NCBI GenBank assembly: GCA_052426225.1
Contig: JBNJNM010000015.1
Span: forward strand, 1,860,001-1,924,000
Direction: 5' to 3'
DNA: 64,000 nt
DNA from: Zancudomyces culisetae HAW-14-8
Taxonomy: Eukaryota; Fungi; Kickxellomycota
The number at the start of each line of letters is the position of its first letter. Within the stretch, counting starts at the first letter, position 1. The translations under genes and the position numbers were made by a program. Shown piece by piece: positions 3,001-60,485 of this stretch. The notes beneath the pieces were generated by a model, which saw only the letters and a list, made by a program, of their open reading frames with translations, did not search any database and was not told where the DNA came from.

Positions 3001-3599
3001 TGTTTTCCGGAACTGGTATCGAAGTTGAAAATTTCGATACTTTTTGGAGCAAATTCTTTAAGTTTATTTACTCCATTTGTAAATAATCTCTTAGCTACTT
3101 GTGCTGTAGAAGGTTTTGGTGTGGAGTCTGTACTGTTACTACTTCGAGGAGAAAAGTATAACTTTGGTGAATCTGAAATCGCTGGGCTACTCCTTGCCTG
3201 GTCTTCATCCCTGTGATCATTGTTGAAAAATGATCCTGTCGCTGACGCCATGTCGTAATAATCATAATTCGGGAGATCATGATTATTATGTTCATCACGT
3301 GTCATACCAGTTCGGGTATGACCACTTGATGAGGATGCACCACTACCCCGTAGTGTGATGTGCATATAGGGGTGCTCGGGTGAGCTATTTCCCCTGTACA
3401 ATGTCGGTGAGATGCTGCTCACGGACATTGGTTCTGGGCTCCTACGGATTTGGAGTTGACGGACACTTTCTGTCAACTCCCCAAGAGTCCGAGGGCTTAG
3501 AACCCCGGTCTCTTGGTCCATGCTACTAGCCGTACTCAGACTGGAGCTAGTTTCTGAATCCCTCTTGGATTCGCTTTTACTATAAAAGAAATAGTTCAT
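1..3599 (-). CDS. Ty3/Gypsy single-ORF gag-pol polyprotein (runs off the window start)
   Basis: Read by hand from ATG 3599 through the protease: Ser-rich N-terminus, gag, CCHC knuckle CYKCRQYGHYASDC, protease YDSGA. RT YIDD (882-893) is in the same frame and RNase H motifs follow (VITDAST, YSITHLEGLAVVWAL). The ORF track omits it, consistent with no in-window stop. Confidence 0.88.
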   Translation of the reverse strand, partial: MNYFFYSKSESKRDSETSSSLSTASSMDQETGVLSPRTLGELTESVRQLQIRRSPEPMSVSSISPTLYRGNSSPEHPYMHITLRGSGASSSSGHTRTGMTRDEHNNHDLPNYDYYDMASATGSFFNNDHRDEDQARSSPAISDSPKLYFSPRSSNSTDSTPKPSTAQVAKRLFTNGVNKLKEFAPKSIEIFNFDTSSGKQNENKEAGTSKTKIRTQVIGSKTAKEVLESNVKATQERMKMGQKELAPGWLPVPPSVFSNSWDQDPEEFLNYFCKHVNALEHVMTLEETFIYLENFLEGSIKKTLVDLMVIQDDWEEYCDLFISTCNKYRDTSEARKQFEKYNLYNNNPITTFADLKRLFKNMKIEDTEKMAEKVFKKLNPADKQHMRNNKDGITMKSMLTYMIQREEDIIETKKSQGIRIQHGNKQKIYNNIKNQKTYNNKNIKNTIKFNNSNNNSPYKPSEKPRTENRSKYETPTKNNRYNKMERNNIRCYKCRQYGHYASDCTTSIEDVEMKTASPIKITPDNPRHEVNLVEIKEQGIKHPVVSQREMSNKITAIMGSVKVNNISTRFQYDSGAATNLMSSEMARRLNLGKGQETTVTIVGVEGNHSKPRYYPSVQITFDTFSVCIPIYSIKQGKPDLLLLGVDLFACLKAHINMEKNIMYCNIKGRVHEVPLILRQDGNTEPTKTILAVNLIDNQGMIINQQLEEHQKQQLKAVIRDNEDEFAHDLEEFRRAKVEPVIIELLDPKPIHCKPYRLAKRLQEEVMNQIAEMETQGVIIKSNSPYCFPMVVVNKKDGKKRICVDYRKLNDISRKDAYPIPNIDEILSNLQGAKYFSTLDALSGYWQIPLDRVTQEMTAFTPGPGLGLFQFTVLPFGLTNAPSIFQRVMEDVLKSELHRCVMVYIDDIIIYSKSFNEHIQDVCRIIELLKANNIKLHAEKCRIGYTEVKYLGHTISAQGIKPDTENIQKVKTLVPPKDVDGIRSYLGLVGYYRKFIKNFSAIAKPLTTLTKKNVNYKWGAEQQQAYEYLQNQLINRPILNHPDWNKDFTVITDASTAGLGAILAQGAEGKEGVICYASRTLSPAESNYSITHLEGLAVVWALTHFHYYLYGRKFTVITDHSALVELFKKEPVKGRIGRWVLKLRHYDFDVIHREGKTNPADYLSRFPWEDIPEQIEEVLYISVKGYEELKNKIKYNIAIN

Positions 3600-6399: not shown

Positions 6400-6811
6400 T
6401 GTCAAGATCTGGAGTTTGGAAAGTTATATTTATTATTATTAAAGTTTATTGTATGAATGTATACAAGATACTAGATACTGAATCCAAGACAGGAAAATTG
6501 TACCCTTTTTATACTTTTTTCCAGCCTTGGTTTTTGAACATAATCACTATGAAAACTGCGGAATAGCTAAAAACGCAAGCTAAAGAAAAACGTGTATGAT
6601 TACTAATCAAATTGGATTAGTAATCATACAAAAATCAAACTCGAATGCTATAAAAATTAAACATGTGAAAATTATTACGTAATAAAAATTAAGAAATAAT
6701 GTGAATTTTCGGTAATGTTCTAGAATGTTGGGGAACATTCTAAACATTACTGCGGAATAAAATCAGATGATTCTAGAACGTTTTCGAACATTCTAGAATC
6801 AGTTCATGACA
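6400..6811 (-). repeat. 3' LTR, family B
   Basis: Direct repeat of 9362-9773 with TGTCA..TGACA termini. Confidence 0.95.
6594..6799. promoter_or_regulatory. Heat-shock-element arrays and AP-1/Yap-like sites in the family B U3 (repeated in the 5' LTR at +2962)
   Basis: TTC-TA-GAA-CG-TTT-TC-GAA-CA-TTC-TA-GAA (6771-6798) and TTC-TA-GAA-TG-TTG-GG-GAA-CA-TTC (6718-6740). Inverted TTACTAA pair (6594-6629) and TTACGTAA (6675-6682). All lie upstream of a minus-strand TATAAAA (6506-6513). Confidence 0.6.
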
Positions 6812-6823
6812 CGACCTCCCCTC

Positions 6824-7780
6824 TTAAGGCTGAGCTCCGTGAAGCATTTGTTGTGGCTTTGGTTTTTCAGGATGGTGACGATGGAATTCAGTGACAAGAT
6901 ATTTTGCATTTGCTAAGTCAGAATATGTTTGCCAGGTACGTTCAGTGTCTGGGTATCCTTTCCAGTGTACCAGGTATTTGACAGTTCTACCAAATATTTT
7001 ACTATCTAGGATTTTCTCAACTTCATATTCTTCTTGGCCATCAATAATCACAGGTAGAAGTGGTTTTGATGGTCTATCTGGAATCAGATCTGGTTTATAA
7101 GGTTCAAGGAGATTGACGTGGAATACTGGGTGAATCTTCATTGTGTGTGGTAGCTGGAGTTTGTATGATCTTTGTCCAATCTTTTCCAATACTTTGAATG
7201 GGCCAAGTTTCCGATAGTCAAGCTTCTTGCTTGGTCTTTGAGTCCTGATGTTTTTAGTTGAGAGATAGACAAGATCACCAATGTTGAAGTCAGGTTGTGA
7301 TGATACTTTTCGGTTGTAGTATTTCTCATGGTCTTCAAGGGCAAGGGAGATGTTAAACTTCAGTTCTTGGTGGATATCAGATAGTCGTTTGGATCTATCA
7401 GAGGAGGCAGGATTTAAAACTTGAGTACGAGGGATTATGACTGAGAAGCGTGGATGGAAGCCATAGTTGGCGTAGAAAGGTGTGGTCTTAGTAGAAGCAT
7501 GAGATGTGTTGTTGTAGGCGAATTCAGCAATTGGTAACCACTTTGACCAATCAGTTTGTTGGTAATCAATGTAGCACCTGAGATACTGTTCCAATACTGA
7601 GTTTACGCGTTCAGTTTGTCCATCTGTCTGAGGATGGAATGCGGTGGACATTTTTTGTTCAATATTCAGTGATTTCATTAGAGTACGCATGAATGATGAA
7701 TTAAAGGTTACACCTCTATCAGATACGATGTCGTTAGGGAGTCCATGTTTGCAGATAGATACTTTCGAGATGGTTATCAT
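6824..7780 (-). pseudogene. N-truncated integrase core plus GPY/F motif and chromodomain
   Basis: HGLPNDIVSDRG, TAFHPQTDGQTER, LGPFKV, YEVEKILDS..YLVHWKGY. The HHCC domain and first catalytic Asp are missing. Confidence 0.9.
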
Positions 7781-8096
7781 TGATTTTTAGTGTTACTTGG
7801 CAGGCAGAGTTGGATCTAAGCTTTGATCCGTCAGCGAGAGTGATTGTCATTTTTCTAGATAAAGATGGTAGATTGTTTTTTAGAGCAAAGGTGGCGTCAA
7901 TGAACGAGGACGAAGCACCAGAATCAACCATAGCGTAGGTTTTGATGTGGTGGTGCTTGAACAAGATGGTTACAGGAATGGTCAAGGTGTTTGGTTTATC
8001 AGGAGATTGGGTGTCAGAAACAGGAGTGGTTACAGTGGCGTGGGGACTGGCTAAGTTGCCCAATAGGTGTCCCTTACTGTCTACTGGGCGGTGTCG
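7734..8096 (-). pseudogene. Truncated aspartic protease in the -1 frame relative to gag
   Basis: YAMVDSGASSSFID motif. Ends at the deletion junction near 7750. Confidence 0.85.
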
Positions 8097-9301
8097 TTTT
8101 CCTGTGTTGGTGTAATGCTGGAGATGTTGTGGCGTTTCTTTGGACAGTTGATGTTGAAATGGTCATTACCGCCACAATAGAGACAGAGATTGTTTTCGAT
8201 ACGGTATGCTCTTTGAGCAGGAGTAAGTGGTGGTCTTCTAGTCGATGAAGCGGTACTGAGATCCATTGGTTGCGGTCCATCACTATTAGCTGGTGGAGTG
8301 GTAGATGGTGCCGAAACAGGTGAAGCAAACGGGTTGTAAGCAGTGGGTTTGGGTGGCATAGTTGCAGTGGGGTTAACTGGAGGTTGACGACGTTGTGGAT
8401 GGCTGAAGAGGCGGTTGTCGATCTGGATGGCTGTAGAGATCAGGGTATCGATGTCTTCTATTGGTTCTCTACGGTTGAGTTCCTGGGATACGTTGTACTT
8501 GAGACCGGATAGAAACTGTGAGATCAAAGGTGGTTGGTTCCAGTCAATTAACATCTGTAGGCGTCTAAACTCGGTGGCATATGCGGCAACGGAAGTGGTT
8601 TGGCGGAGTTGGCGGATTGCCCTATCAGCATTCTCAATAGGGTTGGGATCACCAAAGGCACGAGTGATAGTTTCTTTAAACAGATTGTAGTTGGAGAGGA
8701 TGACAGGACGGTCAGACTCTGGAAGGTTTGCTTTCATGAGGTAAGGTTCCATGTAACTGAATGTTGTGCCTGAGAGGTAGGAGATGGCATACAAGACTTT
8801 ACTTGAGTCTGTGTTGAATTTATCGGGTGAAGCGGCAAAGACGAGAGCAAGCTGTGAAAAGAAGTTGGAACAGGCGGAGGGTTTTCCTGAAAATGTGTCT
8901 GGGTGTCTTACTTTGATACTAGGTTCAGAAGTACTAGCAACTTTGGTGGCACGGTTTTCAGTTATATAAAGTATGACTTCGTTCCTGAGGGTACTGAGCT
9001 GGTCCTGAAGGGATTGGATTTCCAACTGGTTGGCCTTTATGGCGCTTTGGGTTAGCTGGTCTGAATTCTGGATATCGGACTGGAGGTTGTTCATGGAGTC
9101 AAGAATGGTCTGGATGGACTTGGTGGTGTCTGCTTTGACCTTGTCATAAATTTTCTTGGATACTGTGGCAGGGTGTTCCTTGATGGCAGACTCGGCTTTT
9201 TCTACTCTTATTAATAGTTGCTGGAGGGCTTCTTCAACTGCTGGTAGGGTTACGGCGGCTTTGTTGAGGAATTCAACTTGTTCTGGGATAAACGGTTCCA
9301 T
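8081..9301 (-). CDS. gag: Gag (capsid, CCHC knuckle, N-terminal coiled coil), family B
   Basis: 406-aa ORF with PDTFSG, LRQTTSVAAYATEFRRL, PMDL and CLYCGGNDHFNINC. Confidence 0.92.
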   Translation of the reverse strand: MEPFIPEQVEFLNKAAVTLPAVEEALQQLLIRVEKAESAIKEHPATVSKKIYDKVKADTTKSIQTILDSMNNLQSDIQNSDQLTQSAIKANQLEIQSLQDQLSTLRNEVILYITENRATKVASTSEPSIKVRHPDTFSGKPSACSNFFSQLALVFAASPDKFNTDSSKVLYAISYLSGTTFSYMEPYLMKANLPESDRPVILSNYNLFKETITRAFGDPNPIENADRAIRQLRQTTSVAAYATEFRRLQMLIDWNQPPLISQFLSGLKYNVSQELNRREPIEDIDTLISTAIQIDNRLFSHPQRRQPPVNPTATMPPKPTAYNPFASPVSAPSTTPPANSDGPQPMDLSTASSTRRPPLTPAQRAYRIENNLCLYCGGNDHFNINCPKKRHNISSITPTQENDTAQ

Positions 9302-9361
9302 GGTTAAAATACTTAGGCTGGTTTCAGAAAATAATAAATATAATATTTTGATCTAGTATAG

Positions 9362-9773
9362 TGTCAAGATCTGGAGTTTGGAAAGTTATATTTATTATTA
9401 TTAAAGTTTATTGTATGAATGTATACAAGATACTAGATACTGAATCCAAGACAGGAAAATTGTACCCTTTTTATACTTTTTTCCAGCCTTGGTTTTTGAA
9501 CATAATCACTATGAAAACTGCGGAATAGCTAAAAACGCAAGCTAAAGAAAAACGTGTATGATTACTAATCAAATTGGATTAGTAATCATACAAAAATCAA
9601 ACTCGAATGCTATAAAAATTAAACATGTGAAAATTATTACGTAATAAAAATTAAGAAATAATGTGAATTTTCGGTAATGTTCTAGAATGTTGGGGAACAT
9701 TCTAAACATTACTGCGGTGTAAAATCAGATGATTCTAGAACGTTTTCGAACATTCTAGAATCAGTTCATGACA
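9362..9773 (-). repeat. 5' LTR, family B
   Basis: Direct repeat of 6400-6811. Confidence 0.95.
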
Positions 9774-11019: not shown

Positions 11020-11140
11020 TGTCAGAATCGCATTATTTACCCATAAGTTTTAATATTTATTTTTAATCATATTTAACTACCTTTGAATCCTAACTTGGGA
11101 ACATTAAGTTTCCCAACTTAAATAAATTAGTTTCCTGACA
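11020..11140 (+). repeat. 5' LTR, family A (121 bp)
   Basis: TGTCAG..CTGACA termini; AATAAA at ~11121. Confidence 0.96.
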
Positions 11141-11142
11141 TT

Positions 11143-11153
11143 TTGGGAAACTT
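11143..11153 (+). promoter_or_regulatory. Tf1-type self-priming primer binding site
   Basis: TTGGGAAACTT is the exact reverse complement of LTR 11106-11116. No TGG-initiated tRNA PBS directly after the LTR. Confidence 0.8.
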
Positions 11154-11160
11154 CTAATTA

Positions 11161-12129
11161 TTGGTTGAAGAGTTAATGATGGTCCACCAATTAGATGAGA
11201 TCGCAAAATTAGCTATGCAACAAGCTTTGCAAGAAAGTCAAGCTCAAGCCCAGGCTCAAGCCCAGACACCCGCCCAAGTCCCCAGTCAGTTGCAGAATTT
11301 GCCTGCACCAAATCCGCAGCCAAGGATTGATGGTATCAGAATACCAGAAATCCAGAAATACTCAGGAGAATCAGGAAGGTTCCGAGCCTTCACCGCCGAG
11401 ATCAAGCGCCAGTTCTGGGCCAGACCAGACGTGTTCCAGAGTGACCATAACAAGATATGGTTCATCAGTTCTCACCTTGCCGGTCATGCTGCCCTGTGGT
11501 TCGATAACCTTATCGATACCCAATCACCGTTGCTCTCAGATTTCAAAGGGTTTGAGAATGAATTTCAAAAGAGATTCTCAGATCCTGGCCACCAAGCCCG
11601 AGCTATCACCCAGCTTCATAGTTGCCGCCAGTCCCAGCGTTCCGTCCTGGAATTTGCAACCGAGTTCAGAAACCTCGCCTCTCTCAGTGGATTCAACGAG
11701 CCAGCCAAAATCCACCTGTTTTACATCGGATTGGATACTAGCCTTGTCCAGCGCCTTGCCACTGAACCGCTACCAAACACCTTGGACCAGCTCATTGATC
11801 AGGTGATTGAGCTTGAGAACAGAATCAATGCCCGCAGTGCCTACCTGCCCAAGAGAAGCGTCCCATTCCGCAACTGGAGTACTCCGGCTCCACCGGTCTT
11901 CCCCCGTCCAGCCATGCCTGTCCCAGATCACCAGGCTCCTGAACCAATGGACGTTGATGCCGTCACCTCCCGTCCAAGAGCACCGCTAGATACAGCCGAA
12001 CGCCAGAGAAGATTAGCCAATAATCTTTGTCTATACTGTGGTCAGCCGAACCACATTCTCCGTAACTGTCCGCTCCGCAGGCCAAGACCCCCTATACCTG
12101 GGGTGCCAAAAGACAGTGCTCAGATGTAG
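11161..12129 (+). CDS. gag: Gag, family A (likely ATG at 11176)
   Basis: Capsid motifs (KYSGE, SVLEFATEFRNL), PEPMDVD, CLYCGQPNHILRNC. Confidence 0.93.
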   Translation: MVEELMMVHQLDEIAKLAMQQALQESQAQAQAQAQTPAQVPSQLQNLPAPNPQPRIDGIRIPEIQKYSGESGRFRAFTAEIKRQFWARPDVFQSDHNKIWFISSHLAGHAALWFDNLIDTQSPLLSDFKGFENEFQKRFSDPGHQARAITQLHSCRQSQRSVLEFATEFRNLASLSGFNEPAKIHLFYIGLDTSLVQRLATEPLPNTLDQLIDQVIELENRINARSAYLPKRSVPFRNWSTPAPPVFPRPAMPVPDHQAPEPMDVDAVTSRPRAPLDTAERQRRLANNLCLYCGQPNHILRNCPLRRPRPPIPGVPKDSAQM

Positions 12130-15100
12130 TCCGGGAGTTACTCCTGAGCGTAGCTAATAATTCTAATATTTCTAGTAATAAATTTCATATTAAAGTTGTT
12201 TTAAATAATCTATACGAACTTGTTGCATTAGTGGACTCCGGTGCTTCAGCCAACTTTATTCGTCAAGATTTATTAGAAAAACTAAACCTCCCAACCAAAG
12301 AAGCTGAAAAAACCATCGTCCTAGAAAGTGTTGATGGTCACCAGATATACCCAGGGGGCATAAATGTCAAGGTTGATAATGCCCATATCAAGTCCGGTCC
12401 TAACCACTCTGAACACCTAGACCTTATCCCGATTCCAACCAATCACGCTGACATTATTTTTGGATTACCCTGGTTACGCAAACACAATCCTAGTATAACT
12501 TGGCCAGACCTCCAGATCCACTTCGACTCTGACTTTTGCAGTACAAATTGTGTTGATACCCACTCCATCCAGGCCGTGTTCAAGTCACCTGATGAACCAG
12601 ATCCAGATCCAGTAGAACAAAATATTAGCCAGAATACGTCCACAAACTCAACTATCCTCCAAAGGGTGTTGAATAGATTATCAACTACCCTGCTTCCACA
12701 CAGTGCCAAGTTGCTCGAATCGGTCAAGTTGGACGATTCAAACACTGAAAATCAAAGATTTTCACCGCCTCCGTCTCCTGATCTCCCCAGCCCAGCTCCG
12801 TCAAATCCATACGCCAGAATTGAAGAGATTCTACCTGTACCTGTTCCTGCACCAGTCCAATCAGTCACTCCAGAACCTGAAACCCAAAGTTTGCCCAAAC
12901 CCGCAGCTATTGAGAACCCAGTAGATAACCATGTTGTCAAGCAAATTCCTGATCCCCGTCGTTCAGTAACCCCTGTGCCAAAAGTACCACTCAGACCTGA
13001 ACTTCCCAAAGCAATCCTGAAGAAAATTGAGCCAAGAGAACCAGTCGTCAGATGTCGGCCATTTCATAAAAATACCCCAGTCACCACCCCCGAGCCAGAA
13101 TATTCCTTGGATCCAGATCCTGTAACTTTTGCCGTTTCTGAGTCCCCACTAGAGTACTTGGAAGAATTTCCGCAACTTCCAGTAATATACTCTGAATTCA
13201 AGGAAGTGTTCAATCCCAAGTCTGCCGTTTCACTTCCTCCTCACCGCCGTTATGACTGTCCTGTCAACACCAAAGAGGGTTACACCCCATACTGGGGGCC
13301 AATATACCCGCTATCGGAAGTAGAGTTAGAGTCTCTAAGAGGTTACATCCGCGAAAACCTCACCAATGGCTTCATCAGACGCTCTGTCTCCCCTGCTGGT
13401 GCACCAATCATGTTTGTAAAGAAGAAGTCTGGTGACTTGCGCCTTTGTGTTGACTACCGCCGATTGAACGAAGCTACCATCAAGAATAGGTACCCATTAC
13501 CTAGGATTGATGAGGCGTTCGATCGGCTGCGTACAGCCAAGGTCTTTACAAAATTGGATCTCAAAGGTGCCTACAACTTAGTGCGGATCAAGGAAGGTGA
13601 CGAGTGGAAAACTGCATTTAGGTGCAGATATGGCCACTTTGAGTACCAGGTCATGCCATTTGGCTTGACAAATGCTCCCGCCACCTTTCAGCACTTTATC
13701 AATGATGTGTTACGAGATGTATTGGATCTCTATGCAATTGCATACCTTGACGACATCTTGATATTTTCCAATGACACTGACACTCACATCAATCATGTGA
13801 AATCTGTTCTGAAAAAGCTGCTTGAAAATGGTCTGTACTGTAACGCCGAAAAATGTCACTTCCATATCAGGGAAGTTGAATTTCTAGGCCATGTTGTGTC
13901 TTCAGATGGAATAGCCACCGATCCTGCTAAAGTCAAGTGTGTAAAAGAATGGCTACCACCCACCAATGTTAAGGAGGTCCAGAAGTTTCTCGGTTTTGCC
14001 AATTACTACCGAAAGTTTATCCCATACTTTTCGCTGAAAGCCCTGCCAATCACAAGACTTCTGAAAAAGGATACACCGTTCGTTTGGAGTAAGGAGGCAG
14101 GTGAAGCCTTTAATACTCTTATCCAGGATCTCACCACTTCCCCCGTTCTCAGATACCCTGACCCAGGAAAACAGTTTATTCTGGAAACTGACGCCTCAGA
14201 CTACGCCATTGGGGCTGCTCTGTCCCAAGAAGATGAAAACGGTGATCTCCGTCCTTGTGCCTACTATTCTTACAAACTCAACACTGCCGAATCCAACTAT
14301 AATATCTATGACAAGGAACTCTTGGCAATCATCAAGGCTCTCAAAGAATGGCGACATCATCTGGAAGGCTCCTCCATCCCGTTCAAGATTCTTACTGACC
14401 ATAAGAATCTGGAGACCTTTAAAAATCTGAAGTCACTCAACAGAAGACACGCAAGGTGGTCTCTTGATCTCAGTAGATTCAGCTTCATCATAACCTACAG
14501 GCCTGGATCTCAAGGAGGCAAACCTGACGCTCTTTCTCGTTTGCCCAATCACACACCTGATAAGGTCGCCAACAACAACATCATAGGCGAGGACCACTTC
14601 TTAGACATTATCAGCATAGTGGACAGTGATTTTGCTCAAGAAATCGCCAAATCCAGCAAAGCCCATCTAGAAGGATTATTGGATGCCGCAAGATACCAGA
14701 GCAGCCATAAGTCTAACGAGCCAGTAGAAGTTGAAGATGGAATTGTAATGCTTGGAAACCGTGTTGTCGTCCCCGACAAAATGAAGCCGCAAGTTGTAAG
14801 TTCTAGACATGACAGTGGCCCAGCCGGCCATTTTGGCGCTAAGAAGACATTGGAGCTCGTGGAACGAGACTTTTGGTTTCCAGGAATGCGCAAATTTATT
14901 AAAGAGTTTGTTCAAACCTGTGATACATGCAATAGATCAAAGGACAGAAGACACAAAGTTTACGGTAAACTACTTCCGCTACCCGCTCCCTCAGGCCCAT
15001 GGAAATCTATCACCATGGATTTCATAACTGATCTTCCTCCATCCAACAAGCACACTACTATTATGGTAGTTGTAGACAGGTTCACTAAAATGAGCCATTT

Positions 15101-16058
15101 CATCCCGCTTAAGAAGCTGCCATCCTCAGAAGAAACTGCCTCCGCCTTCTTTACCCACGTATTCAAGCTTCATGGACTACCAGACGTCATAATCTCTGAC
15201 CGTGGAACCCAATTCTCGTCCAAATTTTGGAGTTCACTATTCAAACTGCTCAAAGTTGATACTAGAATGTCTACAGCCTTCCATCCAGAGACAGACGGTC
15301 AAACGGAGCGGGTGAATCAAACATTGGAACAGTATCTACGCTGTTTCATCAACTATCAGCAAGATAATTGGTTTGAACTGCTCCCAATTGCCGAATTTGC
15401 TTATAACAACACTCTCCACTCCAGCACTAATACTTCTCCTTTCTTTGCTCTATATGGTTACCATCCAAGATTTGATCCTCAAATCACTAAAAACGTTCAC
15501 GTCCCCAGCGCTTCTGATAGGATAAAACAACTCAAAGAACTTCAATCAGCCCTCACTTCCATACTTAACAAGAAATCTCAGGAATATAAAAAGTATGCTG
15601 ATGTAAACCGATCTGAACATCCAAAGTATAAACTAGGTGACAAGGTTTGGCTATCCAGCCAAAATATCAAAACTCAAAGGCCTTCTAAAAAGCTTGACCA
15701 CAGACTTCTAGGCCCTTTCACCATCTCTAAAATTATCAATCCTGTTTCTGTCCGTTTAGACCTCCCGCCAACAATGAAAATCCATAACACTTTTCATGTC
15801 TCGTTATTGGAACCGTATATCGAACCCAGCAGTAACCGCAGATTATTAAACAGTCTTCCTCCACCTCTAATTATAAATGGAAATAAAGAATATGAAGTTA
15901 AGGCTATTTTGGATTCTAAGCTTGTTAGGGGTAAAAAATATTACTTGGTTGATTGGAAAGGCTTTGACATAAGTGAAAGAAGCTGGGAGCCGATTGCAAA
16001 CATAAACGCGCCTCAACTATTGAAAAAATACTATAAGACATATCACAACAAACCATAA
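12108..16058 (+). CDS. pol: Pol (PR-RT-RH-IN-chromodomain), probably via -1 frameshift
   Basis: The -1 frame is open from at least 12108. LVDSGA, AYLDD, ETDASD, H..H..CDTC, SDRG, DGQTER, and a chromodomain YEV..YLVDWKGF..SWEP. Confidence 0.95.
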   Translation, partial: KRQCSDVVRELLLSVANNSNISSNKFHIKVVLNNLYELVALVDSGASANFIRQDLLEKLNLPTKEAEKTIVLESVDGHQIYPGGINVKVDNAHIKSGPNHSEHLDLIPIPTNHADIIFGLPWLRKHNPSITWPDLQIHFDSDFCSTNCVDTHSIQAVFKSPDEPDPDPVEQNISQNTSTNSTILQRVLNRLSTTLLPHSAKLLESVKLDDSNTENQRFSPPPSPDLPSPAPSNPYARIEEILPVPVPAPVQSVTPEPETQSLPKPAAIENPVDNHVVKQIPDPRRSVTPVPKVPLRPELPKAILKKIEPREPVVRCRPFHKNTPVTTPEPEYSLDPDPVTFAVSESPLEYLEEFPQLPVIYSEFKEVFNPKSAVSLPPHRRYDCPVNTKEGYTPYWGPIYPLSEVELESLRGYIRENLTNGFIRRSVSPAGAPIMFVKKKSGDLRLCVDYRRLNEATIKNRYPLPRIDEAFDRLRTAKVFTKLDLKGAYNLVRIKEGDEWKTAFRCRYGHFEYQVMPFGLTNAPATFQHFINDVLRDVLDLYAIAYLDDILIFSNDTDTHINHVKSVLKKLLENGLYCNAEKCHFHIREVEFLGHVVSSDGIATDPAKVKCVKEWLPPTNVKEVQKFLGFANYYRKFIPYFSLKALPITRLLKKDTPFVWSKEAGEAFNTLIQDLTTSPVLRYPDPGKQFILETDASDYAIGAALSQEDENGDLRPCAYYSYKLNTAESNYNIYDKELLAIIKALKEWRHHLEGSSIPFKILTDHKNLETFKNLKSLNRRHARWSLDLSRFSFIITYRPGSQGGKPDALSRLPNHTPDKVANNNIIGEDHFLDIISIVDSDFAQEIAKSSKAHLEGLLDAARYQSSHKSNEPVEVEDGIVMLGNRVVVPDKMKPQVVSSRHDSGPAGHFGAKKTLELVERDFWFPGMRKFIKEFVQTCDTCNRSKDRRHKVYGKLLPLPAPSGPWKSITMDFITDLPPSNKHTTIMVVVDRFTKMSHFIPLKKLPSSEETASAFFTHVFKLHGLPDVIISDRGTQFSSKFWSSLFKLLKVDTRMSTAFHPETDGQTERVNQTLEQYLRCFINYQQDNWFELLPIAEFAYNNTLHSSTNTSPFFALYGYHPRFDPQITKNVHVPSASDRIKQLKELQSALTSILNKKSQEYKKYADVNRSEHPKYKLGDKVWLSSQNIKTQRPSKKLDHRLLGPFTISKIINPVSVRLDLPPTMKIHNTFHVSLLEPYIEPSSNRRLLNSLPPPLIINGNKEYEVKAILDSKLVRGKKYYLVDWKGFDISERSWEPIANINAPQLLKKYYKTYHNKP

Positions 16059-16198
16059 GAGCAACATTATATTATATTAATTAACCAATATTATACCTAA
16101 ATACTTATCAAAAAAAACTATAAAAACAACCTAAAAACAACTAAAAAGCATAAAAAATTATAAAAGAAAAAATAAAAAAGAATGAACTTAGGAGGGCG

Positions 16199-16365
16199 CT
16201 AACGTCTTGGGCCACACAATCACGTGATTCGAATTAACTGCTCGAGATCCCGAAGGAGTTATCGGAGAGGTGAAACGGTCCGGTACTAGTCCCGAAGGAC
16301 GTTATCGCGCACATTGGCCCCGTGAAACATCACATCCACTCTACAGCTAATTACTTCCCAATTAC
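16199..16365 (-). ncRNA. Unassigned structured RNA module (antisense in the family A 3' UTR)
   Basis: Nested stems, two cUUCGg hairpins, and homology with covariation to 27567-27728. Confidence 0.6.
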
Positions 16366-16440
16366 GGTCTTACAGCGAAGGATCGAACCAGGGTCCTGCA
16401 GAATACAAGTTCGACGCCTTAGCCACTCGACTATAAGCTC
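16365..16440 (-). promoter_or_regulatory. Degenerate tRNA-derived head (Pol III A and B boxes)
   Basis: A box TAGTCGAGTGG, D-arm GTC-GAGTGGCTAA-GGC, B box GGTTCGATCC, partial acceptor stem CTTAT/GTAAG. T-stem and anticodon arm are irregular. Confidence 0.7.
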
Positions 16441-16499
16441 ACATTTTTGTCCAAGATATTATTTTTATATATTTAAAATATTCTTTGAAGGGGGGATAA

Positions 16500-16620
16500 T
16501 GTCAGAATCGCATTATTTACCCATAAGTTTTAATATTTATTTTTAATCATATTTAACTACCTTTGAATCCTAACTTGGGAACATTAAGTTTCCCAACTTA
16601 AATAAATTAGTTTCCTGACA
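16500..16620 (+). repeat. 3' LTR, family A
   Basis: Identical to 11020-11140. Confidence 0.96.
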
Positions 16621-17047
16621 CCTCCAATAACTAAAGGCACACCAGAAATTTTTCCTCTACTAATATGGCGTTTGCCATCCGCTGTGACTATAATCTGATT
16701 ATCATCTGGCTCAGGTATTAATCCCCAACTCTTCACTAAATCTGGAGTTGCCACTGAGCAGACAGCTCCCGTATCAACTATTGCTGTTGTTTCCATATCA
16801 AAAATAACTACTTGAATTTTGCTGTTGGACTGTTTTGGTGTCTCCATACGTATCTCATTTATTTCCGACTTTTTTACCTTTTTATTAAGCATTGTCAGCT
16901 CATTAGACAACTTAGGCGAAGCTTCCAAAAGCTGTGGTAGAGATATCTGTGGGTAAAAAGTTGCCAACTGTTCACTCAATGAAAACGGTTTGACCCTCTC
17001 AGCCATTTTTAAATATGTGGGAACCTTGGTAATTTGCTTTTTCTGAT

Positions 17048-24965: not shown

Positions 24966-25456
24966 ATCTCTAATAACCCAAATTTTATTCGAACTGTATT
25001 TGAATCGATTATTAACGGTTAACACATTTCGGATAAGATTAATTAAAAGATTTTATGGAAGGAAACGTTGATGACGATAATACGAAAGCTATAATATTAA
25101 TAATTTCTACGTTATAAAAATTAACAATAGTTAGCTAATACACATATTGAGAAATGAATGAACTTTTCAAATATATATATAAAATAATGCAATTAATTAC
25201 GAACAAATTTTTCAATTTATACTAACATTCTTAATTTATTGTCAAACCGAAGTATTACACAAATTTTCAATAATTTGTAATTTAATTTCATAACGAAAAT
25301 CACCTAAGAATTCAAATACCAGAATATATTAAAAGTGAAATAATATTCGCAAAAATTGATTTTTCAGCAAACATGTATTATTCCGTGATATTTTCAAAGT
25401 TCAAATATTCTTAAACGTGGAAAAATTAATAAATCAATATTGCCTTGCATCCTATC

Positions 25457-25572
25457 TGTTAGAAGTTAACTATGTACTGTATGAAATAACAAAATGTTTT
25501 TTTATATTATAATAACATTGTAATCTAACTAGGAAACATAGATTCTCAACTATAATAAATTAGTTTCCTGAC
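25457..25572 (+). repeat. Diverged family-A-like solo LTR
   Basis: Ends ATAAATTAGTTTCCTGACA like the family A LTR and starts TGTTAGAA. Confidence 0.6.
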
Positions 25573-25690
25573 ACTGAAATATGAAATTTTTAAATCTAAA
25601 ATGTCAAACTCTTTAATATATAATGAAGTAAGAAAATATTTAACCTTCGATAATCAAGGTCTTGCAACCACGGTTTTAATCATAAAATAC

Positions 25691-26918: not shown

Positions 26919-27040
26919 TGTCACAGAACGCGTTTTATTGGTTAAACAGGTTGTAATTCTTAAGGAATTAATGCTAGTCAAAAGCTATTAATTAAAACCT
27001 AATTAAATATTAAAACAAATGTTATGGAATGTTAGATGTC
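26919..27040 (-). repeat. LTR fragment of the 140-bp LTR family
   Basis: TGTCACAGAACG..TTTATTG..TAAACA.GTTGTAATTCT matches 31940 onward. Confidence 0.6.
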
Positions 27041-28049
27041 ACCAGATTAACCATACCAGCTCCCCGTCTCAATGAACAAATATCCAGTTTTTTATGTTTC
27101 GCTAAAGGATAAATATTCATCTCCAGTGATTTGTGATCAACAAGCCACTACGGAACCTAAATATTATCAACTACAAACTAGAGTATGAAATTAAGGAAAT
27201 ACTCGATTCAAAAATTAACAGAAATAAACTTAGTTTTTTGATACATAGGAAGGGATACAATATTAATGAACGAACTTGGAACCAAAAGCAAATTTATCTG
27301 CAAACCAACACATAAAGACTTCCATACTCAATTTCCATCAAAGCCAAAATAACTATCAAATCGTAAAAAAAAATATATATATAAAATTTAATATAATAAA
27401 TCAAAATAACAAACAACAACAAACACCATAGTCAATATAAAATATTACAAATTAAAAAAATTATTTCAATTTTCTCATAATAATATTTATATGCCAACTT
27501 TCCCTAACGAAATTAGTAAATAAAATCGAGAATACTCGCTTATATATTAACCGAGTTAACTGAAAGATCGTATGGGAGAAGATGAATCAGCTGGTGAGAA
27601 TGTGGGGCTATAGGCGGCCAATGTGCGCAAGCGAAAGCGAGCACCGGGGCCTCCCACATCTTCTTAATTTCCTTTAGGATGCCGGTACTGATTCGCGGAT
27701 CACCGAATGGTGTGGCACTCAACGTTAGTTATGTTTTAAAAATATTAAGTCGAATATCCCAAAATTCGATATCATATTTTAATATATTACTATTATTAAA
27801 AAAATAAACCAATCAAACAAAAAAATATAATTAATATAATTATTTTAAAAAAACTCAAATTTACCATTAGTATAAAAGTATACTTTAATACCTTTTTGGA
27901 GAGGGATAATGTAACAATAAATAATGTTACATCTTATTACCCATAATTATATTATACAATTATTCTTCTACATAATCATTTGAGTTATGCTTTGTTGTAA
28001 TTACCTAAGTATTACAACCTGTTTAACCAACAAAAGTCGTTAGGTGACA
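27040..28049 (+). mobile_element. 3' end of a short-LTR chromovirus related to family A
   Basis: Chromodomain remnant (YEIKEILDSK..KGYNINERTW, 27133-27315), long 3' UTR, PPT GGAGAGGGATAA, 140-bp LTR 27910-28049. Confidence 0.8.
27567..27728 (+). ncRNA. Unassigned structured RNA module (homologue of 16199-16365)
   Basis: Shared GGCCAATGTGCGC, AG(C/T)ACCGG, TGTGG and ACGTTAG. Stems GAATCAG/CTGATTC and ATGTGGG/CCCACAT; GC-GAAA-GC hairpin. Confidence 0.6.
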
Positions 28050-31939: not shown

Positions 31940-32079
31940 TGTCACAGAACGAGATTTATTGAATAAACATGTTGTAATTCTAAGAGAATTACAACGAAGC
32001 ATAAACGAAATGATTAAATAGAAGATAAAATATTAAGATTAATTATGGATAATAAGAAGTAATATTATTGGCTATAACA
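31940..32079 (-). repeat. Solo LTR, 140-bp family
   Basis: Reverse-complement homologue of 27910-28049 with a perfect TSD CATTT. Confidence 0.85.
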
Positions 32080-39414: not shown

Positions 39415-39594
39415 TGTCAGGAAACTAATTTATTTAAGTTGGGAAACTTAATGTTCCCAAGTTAGGATTCAAAGGTAATTAAATATGATTCTAAATAAAT
39501 ATTAAAACTTATGGGTAAATAATGCGATTCTGACATTATCCCCCCTTCAAAGAATATTTTAAATATATAAAAATAATATCTTGGACAAAAATGT

Positions 39595-39861
39595 GAGCTT
39601 ATAGTCGAGTGGCTAAGGCGTCGAACTTGTATTCTGCAGGACCCTGGTTCGATCCTTCGCTGTAAGACCGTAATTGGGAAGTAATTAGCTGTAGAGTGGA
39701 TGTGATGTTTCACGGGGCCAATGTGCGCGATAACGTCCTTCGGGACTAGTACCGGACCGTTTCACCTCTCCGATAACTCCTTCGGGATCTCGAGCAGTTA
39801 ATTCGAATCACGTGATTGTGTGGTTCAAGACGTTAGCGCCCTCCTAAGTTCATTTTTTTTT
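39595..39861 (+). ncRNA. Candidate Pol III unit: tRNA-like head, structured RNA and T-run
   Basis: TATATAAAA 39564-39572, A/B boxes within 39595-39670, structured module 39669-39837, T9 at 39853-39861. Confidence 0.6.
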
Positions 39862-39997
39862 ATTTTTTCTTTTATAATTTTTTATGCTTTTTAGTTGTTT
39901 TTAGGTTGTTTTTATAGTTTTTTTTGATAAGTATTTAGGTATAATATTGGTTAATTAATATAATATAATGTTGCTCTTATGGTTTGTTGTGATATGT

Positions 39998-42900
39998 CTT
40001 ATAGTATTTTTTCAATAGTTGAGGCGCGTTTATGTTTTCAATCGGCTCCCAGCTTCTTTCACTTATGTCAAAGCCTTTCCAATCAACTAAGTAATATTTT
40101 TTACCCCGTACAAGCTTGAATCCAAAATAGCCTTAACTTCATATTCTTTATTTCCATTTATAATTAGAGGTGGAGGAAGACTGTTTAATAATCTGCGGTT
40201 ACTGCTGGGTTCGATATACGGTTCCAATAACGAGACATGAAAAGTGTTATGGATTTTCATTGATGGCGGGAGGTCTAAACGGACAGAAACAGGATTGATA
40301 ATTTTAGAGATGGTGAAAGGTCCTAGAAGTCTATAGTCAAACTTTTTAGAAGGCCTTTGAGTTTTGATATTTTGGCTGGATAGCCAAACCTTGTCACCTA
40401 GTTTATACTTTGGATGTTCAGATCGGTTTACATCAGCATACTTTTTATATTCCTGAGATTTCTTGTTAAGTATGGAAGTGAGGGCTGATTGAAGTTCTTT
40501 GAGTTGTTTTATCCTATCAGAAGCGCTGGGGACGTGAACGTTTTTAGTGATTTGAGGATCAAATCTTGGATGGTAACCATATAGAGCAAAGAAAGGAGAA
40601 GTATTAGTGCTGGAGTGGAGAGTGTTGTTATAAGCAAATTCGGCAATTGGGAGCAGTTCAAACCAATTATCTTGCTGATAGTTGATGAAACAGCGTAGAT
40701 ACTGTTCCAATGTTTGATTCACCCGCTCCGTTTGACCGTCTGTCTCTGGATGGAAGGCTGTAGACATTCTAGTATCAACTTTGAGCAGTTTGAATAGTGA
40801 ACTCCAAAATTTGGACGAGAATTGGGTTCCACGGTCTGAGATTATGACGTCTGGAAGTCCATGAAGCTTGAATACATGTGTGAAAAATGCGGAGGCAGTT
40901 TCTTCTGAGGATGGCAGCTTCTTAAGCGGGATGAAATGGCTCATTTTAGTGAACCTGTCTACCACTACCATAATAGTAGTGTGCTTGTTGGATGGAGGAA
41001 GATCAGTTATGAAATCCATGGTGATAGATTTCCATGGGCCTGAAGGAGCGGGTAGCGGAAGTAGTTTACCGTAAACTTTGTGTCTTCTGTCCTTTGATCT
41101 ATTGCATGTATCACAGGTTTGAACAAACTCTTTAATAAATTTGCGCATTCCTGGAAACCAAAAGTCTCGTTCCACGAGCTCCAATGTCTTCTTAGCACCA
41201 AAATGGCCGGCTGGGCCACTGTCATGTCTAGAACTTACAACTTGCGGCTTCATTTTGTCGGGGACGACAACACGGTTTCCAAGCATTACAATCCCATCTT
41301 CGACTTCTACTGGCTCGTTAGACTTATGGCTGCTCTGGTATCTTGCGGCATCCAATAATCCTTCTAGATGGGCTTTGCTGGATTTGGCGATTTCTTGAGC
41401 AAAATCACTGTCCACTATGCTAATAATGTCTATGAAGTGGTCTTCGCCTATGATGTTGTTGTTGGCGACCTTATCAGGTGTGTGATTGGGTAAACGAGAA
41501 AGAGCGTCAGGTTTGCCTCCTTGAGATCCAGGCCTGTAGGTTATGATGAAGCTGAATCTACTGAGATCAAGTGACCACCTTGCGTGTCTTCTGTTGAGTG
41601 ACTTCAGATTTTTAAAGGTCTCCAGATTCTTATGGTCAGTAAGAATCTTGAACGGGATGGAGGAGCCTTCCAGATGATGTCGCCATTCTTTGAGAGCCTT
41701 GATGATTGCCAAAAGTTCCTTGTCATAGATATTATAGTTGGATTCGGCAGTGTTGAGTTTGTAAGAGTAGTAGGCACAAGGACGGAGATCACCGTTTTCA
41801 TCTTCTTGGGACAGAGCAGCCCCAATGGCGTAGTCTGAGGCGTCAGTTTCCAGAATAAACTGTTTTCCTGGGTCAGGGTATCTGAGAACGGGGGAAGTGG
41901 TGAGATCCTGGATAAGAGTATTAAAGGCTTCACCTGCCTCCTTACTCCAAACGAACGGTGTATCCTTTTTCAGAAGTCTTGTGATTGGCAGGGCTTTCAG
42001 CGAGAAGTATGGGATAAACTTTCGGTAGTAATTGGCAAAACCGAGAAACTTCTGGACCTCCTTGACATTGGTGGGTGGTAGCCATTCCTTTACACACTTG
42101 ACTTTAGCAGGATCGGTGGCTATTCCATCTGAAGACACAAAATGGCCTAGAAATTCAACTTCCCTGATATGGAAGTGACATTTTTCGGCGTTACAGTACA
42201 GACCATTTTCAAGCAGCTTTTTCAGAACAGATTTCACATGATTGATGTGAGTGTCAGTGTCATTGGAAAATATCAAGATGTCGTCAAGGTATGCAATTGC
42301 ATAGAGATCCAATACATCTCGTAACACATCATTGATAAAGTGCTGAAAGGTAGCGGGAGCATTTGTCAAGCCAAATGGCATGACCTGGTACTCAAAGTGG
42401 CCATATCTGCACCTAAATGCAGTTTTCCACTCGTCACCTTCCTTGATCCGCACCAAGTTGTAGGCACCTTTGTGATCCAATTTTGTAAAGACCTTGGCTG
42501 TACGCAGCCGATCGAACGCCTCATCAATCCTAGGTAATGGGTACCTATTCTTGATGGTAGCTTCGTTCAATCGGCGGTAGTCAACACAAAGGCGCAAGTC
42601 TCCAGACTTCTTCTTTACAAACATGATTGGTGCACCGGCAGGGGAGACAGAGCGTCTGATGAAGCCATTGGTGAGGTTTTCGCGGATGTAACCTCTTAGA
42701 GACTCTAACTCTACTTCAGATAGCGGGTATATTGGCCCCCAGTATGGGGTGTAACCCTCTTTGGTGTTGACAGGACAGTCATAACGGCGGTGAGGAGGAA
42801 GTGAAACGGCAGACTTGGGATTGAACACTTCCTTGAATTCAGAGTATATTACTGGAAGTTGCGGAAATTCTTCCAAGTACTCTAGCGGGGACTCAGAAAC

Positions 42901-43923
42901 GGCAAAAGTTACAGGATCTGGATCCAAGGAATATTCTGGCTCGGGGGTGGTGACTGGGGTATTTTTATGAAATGGCCGGGATCTGACGACTGGTTCTCTT
43001 GGCTCAATTTTCTTCAGGATTGCTTTGGGAAGTTCAGGTCTGAGTGGTACTTTTGGAACAGGGGTTACTGGACGACGGGGCTCAGGAATTTGCTTAACAT
43101 GGTTATTTACTCGATTCTCAATAGCGGTGGGTTTGGGCAAACTTTGGGTTTCAGGTTCTGGAGTGACTGATTGGACTGGTGCAGGAACAGGAACAGGAAG
43201 AATCTCTTCAATTCTGGCGTATGGATTTGACGGAGCTGGGCTGGGGAGATCAGGAGACGGAGGCGGTGAAAATCTTTGATTTTCAGTGTTTGAATCGTCC
43301 AACTTGACCGATTCGAGCAACTTGGCACTGTGTGGAAGCAGGGAAGTTGATAATCTATTCAACACCCTTTGGAGGATAGTTGGGTTTGTGGACGTATTCT
43401 GACTAATATTTTGTTCTACTGGATCTGGATCTGGTTCATCAGGTGACTTGAACACGGCCTGGATGGAGTGGGTATCAACACAATTTGTACTGCAAAAGTC
43501 AGAGTCGAAGTGGATCTGGAGGTCTGGCCAAGTTATACTAGGATTGTGTTTGCGTAACCAGGGTAATCCAAAAATAATGTCAGCGTGATTGGTTGGAATC
43601 GGGATAAGGTCTAGGTGTTCAGAGTGGTTAGGACCGGACTTGATATGGGCATTATCAACCTTGACATTTATGCCCCCTGGGTATATCTGGTGACCATCAA
43701 CACTTTATAGGACGATGGTTTTTACTGCTTCTTTGGTTGGGAGGTTTAGTTTTTCTAATAAATCTTGACGAATAAAGTTGGCTGAAGCACCGGAGTCCAC
43801 TAATGCAACAAGTTCGTATAGATTATTTAAAACAACTTTAATATGAAATTTATTACTAGAAATATTAGAATTATTAGCTACGCTCAGGAGTAACTCCCGG
43901 ACTACATCTGAGCACTGTCTTTT
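39998..43923 (-). pseudogene. pol: Pol of family A copy 2
   Basis: GAA>TAA nonsense at 43705-43707 in the protease, a 1-bp deletion at ~40116 frameshifting the chromodomain, and KLDL>KLDH in RT. Confidence 0.9.
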
Positions 43924-44870
43924 GGCACCCCAGGTATAGGGGGTCTTGGCCTGCGGAGCGGACAGTTACGGAGAATGTGGTTCGGCTGACCACAGTATAG
44001 ACAAAGATTATTGGCTAATCTTCTCTGACGTTCGGCTGTATCTAGCGGTGCTCTTGGACGGGAGGTGACGGCATCAACGTCCATTGGTTCAGGAGCCTGG
44101 TGATCTGGGACAGGCATGGCTGGACGGGGGAAGACCGGTGGAGCCGGAGTACTCCAGTTGCGGAATGGGACGCTTCTCTTGGGCAGGTAGGCACTGCGGG
44201 CATTGATTCTGTTCTCAAGCTCAATCACCTGATCAATGAGCTGGTCCAAGGTGTTTGGTAGCGGTTCAGTGGCAAGGCGCTGGACAAGGCTAGTATCCAA
44301 TCCGATGTAAAACAGGTGAATTTTGGCTGGCTCGTTGAATCCACTGAGAGAGGCGAGGTTTCTGAACTCGGTTGCAAATTCCAGGACGGAACGCTGGGAC
44401 TGGCGGCAACTATGAAGCTGGGTGATAGCTCGGGCTTGGTGGCCAGGATCTGAGAATCTCTTTTGAAATTCATTCTCAAACCCTTTGAAATCTGAGAGCA
44501 ACGGTGATTGGGTATCGATAAGGTTATCGAACCACAGGGCAGCATGACCGGCAAGGTGAGAACTGATGAACCATATCTTGTTATGGTCACTCTGGAACAC
44601 GTCTGTTCTGGCCCAGAACTGGCGCTTGATCTCGGCGGTGAAGGCTCGGAACCTTCCTGATTCTCCTGAGTATTTCTGGATTTCTGGTATTCTGATACCA
44701 TCAATCCTTGGCTGCGGATTTGGTGCAGGCAAATTCTGCAACTGACTGGGGACTTGGGCGGGTGTCTGGGCTTGAGCCTGGGCTTGAGCTTGACTATCTT
44801 GCAAAGCTTGTTGCATAGCTAATTTTGCGATCTCATCTAATTGGTGGACCATCATTAACTCTTCAACCAA
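43902..44870 (-). CDS. gag: Gag, family A copy 2
   Basis: 322 aa, differing from copy 1 at 2 residues. Confidence 0.92.
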   Translation of the reverse strand: MVEELMMVHQLDEIAKLAMQQALQDSQAQAQAQAQTPAQVPSQLQNLPAPNPQPRIDGIRIPEIQKYSGESGRFRAFTAEIKRQFWARTDVFQSDHNKIWFISSHLAGHAALWFDNLIDTQSPLLSDFKGFENEFQKRFSDPGHQARAITQLHSCRQSQRSVLEFATEFRNLASLSGFNEPAKIHLFYIGLDTSLVQRLATEPLPNTLDQLIDQVIELENRINARSAYLPKRSVPFRNWSTPAPPVFPRPAMPVPDHQAPEPMDVDAVTSRPRAPLDTAERQRRLANNLCLYCGQPNHILRNCPLRRPRPPIPGVPKDSAQM

Positions 44871-46143
44871 TAATTAGAAGTTTCCCAAAATGTCAGGAAA
44901 CTAATTTATTTAAGTTGGGAAACTTAATGTTCCCAAGTTAGGATTCAAAGGTAATTAAATATGATTAAAAATAAATATTAAAACTTATGGGTAAATAATG
45001 CGATTCTGACAATACGGTTTGATATTAAGGACTACAAAAATCATTTCTAGTACAATTAATTGTTCCTCCTCAGTTATGATTTGTAATATCATTACTGATT
45101 TTATGATATGAATATTATATTTATATAGAATCAAGTTTCTAAAGATGAATATATGAATTAGTGTGTATAATATTTTTTAGTAAACTATAAATACTATTGT
45201 AGATTGTAGTTGTATTATCATAACGAACACTTGTAAATATAATTGAATTTAATATTTAAATATGTGCATATATATATTATGTTCTTGCTTTTTGCTACTT
45301 TCTATCTATAAATTAATGTTGTTGGTTGTATCTGATTATAATAGTTATATTCTTTATGATTTAGAAATATGAATAACCATGTATTGTTCTTCGTTGGTAG
45401 TTACATATTTATCTATTCGAAGCTGCTTTAAAAAGTTAATATATTATTTATCTAATAATAGGTGTAGAAAGCTATATCTATTAAACTATTATTAAAATAA
45501 TTAAAAATATTAAAGTTACTTAGTCAGCTGTTAGATATCGTTATGTATTTGTGAAAATTATAAGAATAAATATTAATTCTAGAAACGATAATGATTATTT
45601 TCACTAAAAATGGTATTTGGTATAAATAGCATAATTTTTCAATCTTGGTATCTGAAAATATTATATAAATACAAGAATAAAATTTGGTTGATCAAAATAG
45701 TGCTAAGTATATTTGTGATTAGGTTGGTAATTTGAATTTCCAAAATTATTTATCAGAGTTTGTGAGGTTGATTTAAAGTTCTTCCGATTCATTGGAAAAA
45801 TGACCATGAATACCGACATTCCGTGTCGGAGCATCTATAGGGATAGGATTGGGGCTGGGTTTGTATCAGCCCTATAATTATCCTTGATATATTCGGCTTG
45901 AGCTTTTTTTAGCCCAAATTTTAGTAGGTAATCACCAAGATTCGGTGATTTTTTTCAAGCAATAATTTATCTATGATTGTTTCTTAGAGCAGTTTTGGAT
46001 TCGTTGAGTTCATGTAAGAATCTTTGTAATATTTGGTAGTTTGAATGTTTGTTGTAGAATATGAATAATGGAACAATGATTTTAGAAGGTTTATTGGTCT
46101 TTATAGCTATAATTTTTTAACTTGTATGTGTTTTTAATATGTA

Positions 46144-54848: not shown

Positions 54849-55204
54849 TGTCAAAACTGGTTTAGGAATATTTAGCTTAGTACTATTTTATTTATTTATA
54901 TAAGACAATTGTTGTCAGATAAGGAATAGAAATTTTTAGGAAAAAACTAGGGTTTTTATACTTATAAAAAAGTTAGAAACTTGAATAAAAATTATTGCGT
55001 CTATCGCTTGATTACTAATCAAAATGTTCTAGACAGGAATTTATTATTAAAATCATTAAGTAATAATAAAATTTCCAGTATGTTCTTAGAAAATCATGAA
55101 ATATTAATTACGAATTTATTAATTAAAATTCGTAATTTAAACTTACCAATAAATATAAATAGACACAACGGTCTAGAATTTAATTATATTTTATGGTTAT
55201 GACA
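54849..55204 (-). repeat. 3' LTR, family C
   Basis: Direct repeat of 60130-60485. Confidence 0.96.
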
Positions 55205-55216
55205 GTATCTCCCTCT

Positions 55217-60090: not shown

Positions 60091-60129
60091 GGCTTGGAAT
60101 AGTAGTAAACTGTTATGGATCTGACAAAC

Positions 60130-60485
60130 TGTCAAAACTGGTTTAGGAATATTTAGCTTAGTACTATTTTATTTATTTATATAAGACAATTGTTGTCAGA
60201 TAAGGAATAGAAATTTTTAGGAAAAAACTAGGGTTTTTATACTTATAAAAAAGTTAGAAACTTGAATAAAAATTATTGCGTCTATCGCTTGATTACTAAT
60301 CAAAATGTTCTAGACAGGAATTTATTATTAAAATCATTAAGTAATAATAAAATTTCCAGTATGTTCTTAGAAAATCATGAAATATTAATTACGAATTTAT
60401 TAATTAAAATTCGTAATTTAAACTTACCAATAAATATAAATAGACACAACGGTCTAGAATTTAATTATATTTTATGGTTATGACA
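60130..60485 (-). repeat. 5' LTR, family C
   Basis: Direct repeat of 54849-55204. Confidence 0.96.

Follow-up and report, generated by a model that had tools for sequence, protein, structure and literature searches.

A structured RNA candidate shared by the 3' UTRs of two chromovirus lineages and enclosed in one of them by a predicted Pol III unit

The window, by which we mean the whole 64-kb stretch of DNA analysed here, consists of nested Ty3/gypsy and Tc1 elements and has a GC content of 34%. It raises the question of what a GC-rich body that recurs in opposite orientations in the 3' UTRs of chromoviruses might be. LTR retrotransposons are usually thought to encode only proteins and cis signals. 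The first-pass annotation had proposed a covarying structured RNA present in both copies of one chromovirus family (family A) and in a second chromovirus (B), and this recurrence was confirmed, with the shared motifs and the stems all found where they had been described. The body is a real, uncatalogued structured RNA candidate with a predicted Pol III unit of its own in family A, represented by two lineages.

The carriers and the shared body

The pol gene of family A encodes the RT, RNase H, integrase, SH3 and Chromo domains, as identified with Pfam, and the family is therefore a chromovirus. Since its two elements, A1 and A2, differ at only 72 positions over 5.6 kb, they were counted as a single data point. 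Carrier B had been described as a different short-LTR chromovirus; its SH3/chromo remnant, detected by tblastn, bears out the chromovirus assignment, but the remnant is of the 3' end only and not of a whole element. The limits proposed earlier for the three bodies (16199-16365, 39669-39837 and 27567-27728) had the right place but not the right length, as the bodies are longer and are closed by an additional covarying basal stem of 5 bp (Table 1).

Table 1. Positions of the RNA bodies, their carriers and the tRNA-derived shell in the window
Feature	Positions	Strand	Description
RNA body A1	16197..16377	-	181 nt; antisense in 3' UTR of intact chromovirus A1
RNA body A2	39658..39838	+	179/181 identical to A1
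RNA body B	27558..27730	+	173 nt; sense in 3' UTR of remnant B
Carrier A1	11020..16620	+	Intact chromovirus; identical 121-bp LTRs; 5-bp target duplication; gag 11158-12129; pol with chromodomain 12066-16058
Carrier A2	39415..45011	-	Second copy of family A; 98.7% identical; frameshift near pol end
Carrier B	27057..28049	+	Decayed chromovirus 3' end: broken SH3/chromo remnant 27057-27349, UTR, polypurine tract 27898-27909, single LTR 27910-28049 (140 bp)
tRNA-derived head of A1	16378..16440	-	Acceptor 5' strand 16440-16434; box A 16433-16423; decayed anticodon arm; box B 16389-16380
Tail of A1	16174..16196	-	Closing strand 16190-16184; one discriminator-like A; T run 16179-16174 (predicted Pol III terminator)
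tRNA-derived head of A2	39595..39657	+	Box A 39602; box B 39646
Tail of A2	39839..39861	+	Closing strand; nine-T run 39853-39861

All three copies of the body in the 64-kb window sit between the chromodomain and the polypurine tract, and none was found elsewhere in it, a three-copy covariance model giving no fourth copy. The GC content of the body is 0.51 versus 0.15-0.19 in the UTR flanks (0.15-0.16 for A1). In three further chromoviruses of the window the polypurine tract directly follows the stop codon, there being no 3' UTR and no such RNA, and the RNA is therefore dispensable for the chromovirus lifestyle.

In a MAFFT alignment with one internal gap, 97 of the 175 columns are identical between A1 and B. 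A search of the window with A1 (nhmmer) found B at 28.9 bits (E 3.7e-8), and a covariance model trained on just the two A copies recovered B at full length with 60.4 bits, the next best of the 45 listed matches scoring 10.6. Based on these comparisons, the homology of the A and B bodies is beyond chance. Unpaired and paired columns are about equally conserved (45/85 and 52/90 identical, respectively). The UTR flanks of A and B do not align in either orientation. Similarity between the LTRs of A and B was matched by 7 of 300 shuffles, and B is not clearly closer to A (alignment score 74) than to another element, C (83), so that common descent of the two carriers followed by an inversion is unproven. 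Body A has no complementarity of at least 11 bases to the rest of its own element, which leaves a guide or primer role unsupported. Within the A body (16197-16377, minus strand) an identical 7-base stretch precedes each of the tetraloop hairpins, a repeat that is absent from B.

The best named relative of the family A gag is from Smittium culicis (34%), that of the ORF at 18792 is from Zancudomyces culisetae (63%), and the best matches of the integrase reach no more than 58%. Both species are Harpellales, insect-gut fungi, and the host of the elements is probably a member of this order. Solo or partial LTRs at 26919-27060, 31940-32100 and 25455-25573, two akin to the LTR of B and one to that of A, show what by their likeness are older relatives of both families. 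Several other features of the elements in the window were recorded. Directly 3' of the family A 5' LTR (11107-11152), 11 bases could pair with a segment of the LTR itself, resembling the mechanism of Tf1-type self-priming (as outlined in PMC4600332). An internally deleted chromovirus at 6400-9773, with LTRs that are 99.5% identical, retains gag, part of the protease and the SH3/chromo end, and is a recently mobile non-autonomous form. A Glu-Pro-type array of 6-base repeats lies at 58793-59006, at the start of pol in the chromovirus at 54849-60485. A very stable multi-hairpin stretch at 3290-3590 (z -6.9 on the plus and -5.8 on the minus strand; 0 of 100 shuffles as stable) immediately precedes a minus-strand, gag-like frame with its start near 3253; it had no notable Rfam match and probably represents the structured 5' leader of a further element of the Ty3/gypsy type.

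Predicted fold and covariation

A model of 45 base pairs was scored on the plain alignment, having been chosen with both lineages in view, and these are the only two independent lineages. Pairing was possible in 129 of its 135 cells, and 15 of the 45 pairs have changed on both sides, a number reached by none of 500 shuffles; slid controls paired in 34-41%. The covarying stems that had been proposed on the body were borne out, and to them is added a further basal stem of 5 bp that had been missed. When the structure was drawn from A alone, 13 of 52 pairs were double-changed, with one helix failing in five of its eight pairs. In a fairer comparison, the best shared helix found anywhere has eight consecutive double changes without a gap, a result matched by 1 of 1000 shuffles of the variable letters of B. 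There is also an alternative helix of six pairs (columns 19-24 with 115-120) with four double changes, which is rich in G-U and incompatible with the second basal stem; its four double changes were reached by 29 of 1000 shuffles.

In the predicted fold, the 5-bp closing stem (two double changes) leads through an internal loop with an invariant AAGA to two short stems and from there to a junction bearing a small hairpin and a covarying stem of 8-9 bp. This stem opens into a second junction with a 3-bp hairpin and a long arm, the latter comprising 8 bp, a 5-nt bulge, 3 bp (two double changes), invariant internal loops, 4 bp and a variable tetraloop hairpin. The strand of the RNA, previously defined by the tetraloops as antisense in A and sense in B, holds, as 43 of the 45 pairs stand in each copy versus 37-40 on the opposite strand; the UUCG and GAAA caps lying on the given strand support it further.

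Some details of the earlier description needed correction. The inner stem (GTGC/GTAC versus GTGC/GCAC) keeps its pairing, but the change is one-sided, from G-U to G-C. The exchange of a UUCG for a GAAA cap is present; the second cap in B (UUUA) is no special tetraloop. The CC to TT change of A2, which had been offered as support because wobble pairs remain, does occur but counts for little, since there are other adjacent double changes elsewhere in the same element. A pseudoknot between GCCA and TGGC could form in both lineages, but it competes with two stems, and because all four of its pairs are invariant it draws no support from covariation.

Neither body is thermodynamically more stable than its shuffles (z +1.75 for A and -1.25 for B, with 195 of 200 and 19 of 200 shuffles, respectively, folding as well). 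The consensus fold lies ~7 kcal/mol above the minimum in A and B alike. Unlike a substrate of Dicer, it lacks a long regular duplex.

The tRNA-derived shell and searches for relatives

In family A the body is enclosed by what is left of a tRNA gene, a shell that lies on the strand of the RNA itself and had been overlooked. Box A and box B, 44 nt apart and upstream of the body, gave two matches in the window, both in family A, versus 0.105 expected from shuffles, the pattern being a generic consensus written with the site already in view. A 7-bp closing stem, placed as the acceptor stem is in a tRNA, joins the start of the head to a strand behind the A body; its pairs have probabilities of 0.50-0.98, and 0.26% of random tails would pair in this way. 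T runs follow the unit (six T in A1, nine in A2 and, at 27734-27737, four in B), although a T run is a weak criterion in AT-rich DNA. The shell is not a functional tRNA: ARAGORN found no functional tRNA in the window and, at default thresholds, none in 141 constructs from which the body was omitted, and at a 90% threshold it called a Thr(TGT)-like tRNA in 22 of the 141 body-less constructs compared to 7 of 140 controls, a modest gain. Since the anticodon and T stems have decayed, the shell looks to have been kept as a promoter and for end protection and not for decoding.

Intragenic boxes A and B at tRNA-like spacing, the arrangement of type 2 Pol III genes, were found in family A only; B has no box A or B and no recognisable promoter. 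From these features the unit of family A is probably transcribed by Pol III as a predicted RNA of ~258 nt, antisense to the element. The proposal of an independently expressed cargo RNA is supported in part, by the predicted unit in A, but B offers no such promoter, and the covariation comes from two lineages only. In the flanks of B, 5-base pieces at 27538-27542 and 27746-27750 resemble, by eye, the two strands of the A closing stem; they are possibly a remnant of the same tRNA shell from which the boxes were deleted, a notion to which the flank alignments give no support.

That the RNA belongs to no known family, as had been suggested, agrees with the scan against the Rfam 15 covariance models, in which nothing matched among ribozymes, SRP, RNase P/MRP, snRNA, snoRNA, VA, GIR1 and IRES models. 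No hit reached the gathering score in the window and none had E<=10 over A1 and A2; two hits near B (E 4.9 and 7.1) are at chance level. Likenesses to the lariat-capping ribozyme, hatchet, twister, U4, fungal SRP RNA and SECIS failed when both lineages were compared, and the Rfam scans for them were negative. Motif scans for homologues yielded no real match among 78 loci in viral contigs (0 loci with a second pattern), 9 loci in prokaryote genomes and, with 45 of 64 parts scanned, 120 of about 170 estimated loci in metagenome contigs. Over all 207 scanned loci model R2 scored at most 14.3 bits, from the seed motif alone, and 11 Ty3/gypsy loci from the viral collection scored at most 11.1 bits. 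A blastn search gave one match at E 0.8 in phages and none in plasmids. These collections hold few fungal repeats, and absence from them therefore says little. Full-text searches of a largely open-access literature listed no description of this RNA.

In one public sequencing run (X1) a 177-nt contig covers the body from within box B and represents a near-identical variant, with 150 aligned bases that include two differences and 27 loose bases with ~3 more. By eye, unpaired positions account for three of the changes, and two others weaken the best stem and are not compensated; the contig is single and has a depth of 4.9, and the non-compensated changes may reflect error or a dead copy. As the run is probably of DNA, it shows the presence of the variant and not its expression. 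Across 15000-16700 and 39415-41400 the run covers only the family A body, the gaps elsewhere carrying no evidential weight. There are 11 other records, which among the matches listed amount to pieces of 33-41 nt.

What the RNA might do

By analogy, our preferred reading, to which we give a probability of about one in three, is that the body is a Pol III cargo RNA of the chromovirus that acts in trans as a protein decoy, in the manner of adenovirus VA RNA. The shell of family A (promoter, closing stem and T run) would make a separate transcript of ~258 nt, this transcript would act in trans as a folded, protein-binding decoy, and the decoy might shield the element from host RNA surveillance or silencing, both the role and the target being a guess modelled on VA RNA. 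Action in trans is suggested because a signal that works in cis on the genomic RNA should be legible in one orientation only, and a separate transcript is favoured by the presence of promoter, closing stem and terminator all on the RNA's own strand. The kept loops together with the marginal stability of the consensus favour a protein-bound or tertiary fold. Counting against a decoy are the lack of boxes A and B in carrier B, the sense orientation there, the restriction to two lineages, the lack of a Dicer-like duplex, folds no more stable than shuffles, the uncompensated changes in X1 and the three chromoviruses that do without the RNA. The VA RNAs are described as Pol III transcripts that contain boxes A and B, are closed by a terminal stem and end in four U; a tRNA origin has been suggested for them, and they inhibit host dsRNA factors (PMC7589676). 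RNAi genes have been reported in the Entomophthorales, another order of the Zoopagomycota (PMC11105155).

A rival reading is a cis signal (export, packaging or translation enhancer) that would work in sense, as in B, with A carrying an inverted copy whose tRNA boxes are a chromatin barrier or incidental. Retroviral export elements lie between pol and the polypurine tract, as does the body, and the copy in B is in sense and without a promoter. However, A1 is intact and young, with identical LTRs and a target duplication, yet holds the body in antisense, where the fold loses pairs, and the strand of the RNA bears promoter, closing stem and T run alike; we consider a cis signal improbable. Still less credible, and in our view very improbable, is a neutral relic or chance, that is, a shared GC-rich remnant to which pairings were fitted afterwards. 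Stability z-scores near zero, the two lineages and the changes in X1 that are not compensatory would suit a relic, but the homology and the double changes lie far beyond the controls. The body may instead belong to a new class of ribozyme (self-cleaving, branching or trans-acting) that the tRNA shell merely expresses. Its invariant unpaired loop and junction bases, exchangeable tetraloop hairpins, two multi-way junctions and possible pseudoknot have the look of a small ribozyme, and self-cleaving ribozymes are described as common in retrotransposons (PMC6765202). Against this, no Rfam ribozyme model matched at E<=10, the pairs of the pseudoknot are invariant, self-cleavage in B would sever the genomic RNA 5' of the polypurine tract, and the known retroelement ribozymes lie at transcript ends or in unit-bounding repeats. 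We regard catalysis as unlikely.

Less likely than a decoy, but with more in its favour than those readings, is a hitch-hiker that landed in or recombined into chromovirus tails twice. It would be SINE-like and tRNA-derived, or else a host Pol III RNA gene that was captured and has diverged too far for Rfam to recognise, and its fold would have been selected in its own life and not for the retroelement. The layout of a tRNA head, an unrelated body and a T run is that of a SINE, the opposite orientations and unalignable flanks fit two insertions, of which B could be 5'-truncated, and the contig in X1 has a near-identical body. By contrast, neither site shows by eye an A-rich or repeat tail or a clear target duplication, although old insertions can lose both, and the 3' strand of the tRNA is retained behind the body, which is unusual for a SINE. 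The confinement of three out of three copies in 64 kb to the interval between chromodomain and polypurine tract, with zero free copies, also argues against an independent element. Two captures of one host gene should exceed 55% identity, and there was no Rfam match to the SRP, RNase P/MRP, snRNA or snoRNA models. Insertion of a SINE into LTR elements has, on the other hand, been proposed as the origin of Helenus, Ajax and Cassandra (PMC10886601).

Comparison with known systems places the decoy reading in context. The unit resembles adenovirus VA RNAs, as portrayed in PMC7589676, in being borne by a mobile element and in its intragenic boxes A and B, terminal stem, U-run terminator, suggested tRNA origin and structured central domain; it differs in having no sequence or Rfam match, a fungal-type LTR retrotransposon as carrier, no long stable apical duplex and both boxes upstream of the conserved body. 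Its likeness to the TRIMp3 elements Helenus, Ajax and Cassandra is that a Pol III promoter, tRNA-derived in Helenus, lies inside an LTR retroelement, fungi included (PMC10886601). In the account given there, the tRNA- or 5S-derived promoters lie in non-autonomous LTRs and a functional RNA was judged unlikely; the Pol III sequences it describes in LTR retrotransposons are promoters of non-autonomous elements (PMC10886601). The unit described here does not consist of tRNA-derived sequence within the LTRs of a non-autonomous element, as in Helenus, but lies antisense in the interior of a chromovirus that is autonomous, its gag and pol being open, and encloses a covarying body of 175 nt. SINE2 elements are tRNA-derived SINEs with conserved central domains. 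Family A, and only family A, shares with them a tRNA-like head, which contains boxes A and B, and an unrelated body behind it, but no A-rich tail or target duplication was seen, the acceptor 3' strand is retained after the body and the window has no free copies. The ribozymes of retroelements include the hammerhead, in retrozymes and Penelope-like elements, and HDV-like ribozymes in R2/RTE (PMC6765202). Like them, the body lies within a retroelement and is a conserved, folded RNA whose loops hold invariant bases; unlike them, it matches no Rfam model, is larger, has a terminal stem, and lies internally and in either orientation.

The most far-reaching reading, with a chance of about one in three, is that chromoviruses of early-diverging fungi carry their own small RNA gene in a tRNA-derived shell, which would be a new structural class and either a silencing suppressor acting in trans or a new ribozyme. 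Under that reading, no autonomous LTR retrotransposon would have been known before to carry a cargo gene of VA-RNA-like or catalytic type. If true, a folded RNA that is conserved and transcribed on its own from an autonomous chromovirus would extend both the kinds of cargo carried by transposons and the list of RNA families. It would matter for understanding how transposons might evade silencing in a fungal genome rich in repeats, or it may add a new class of ribozyme.
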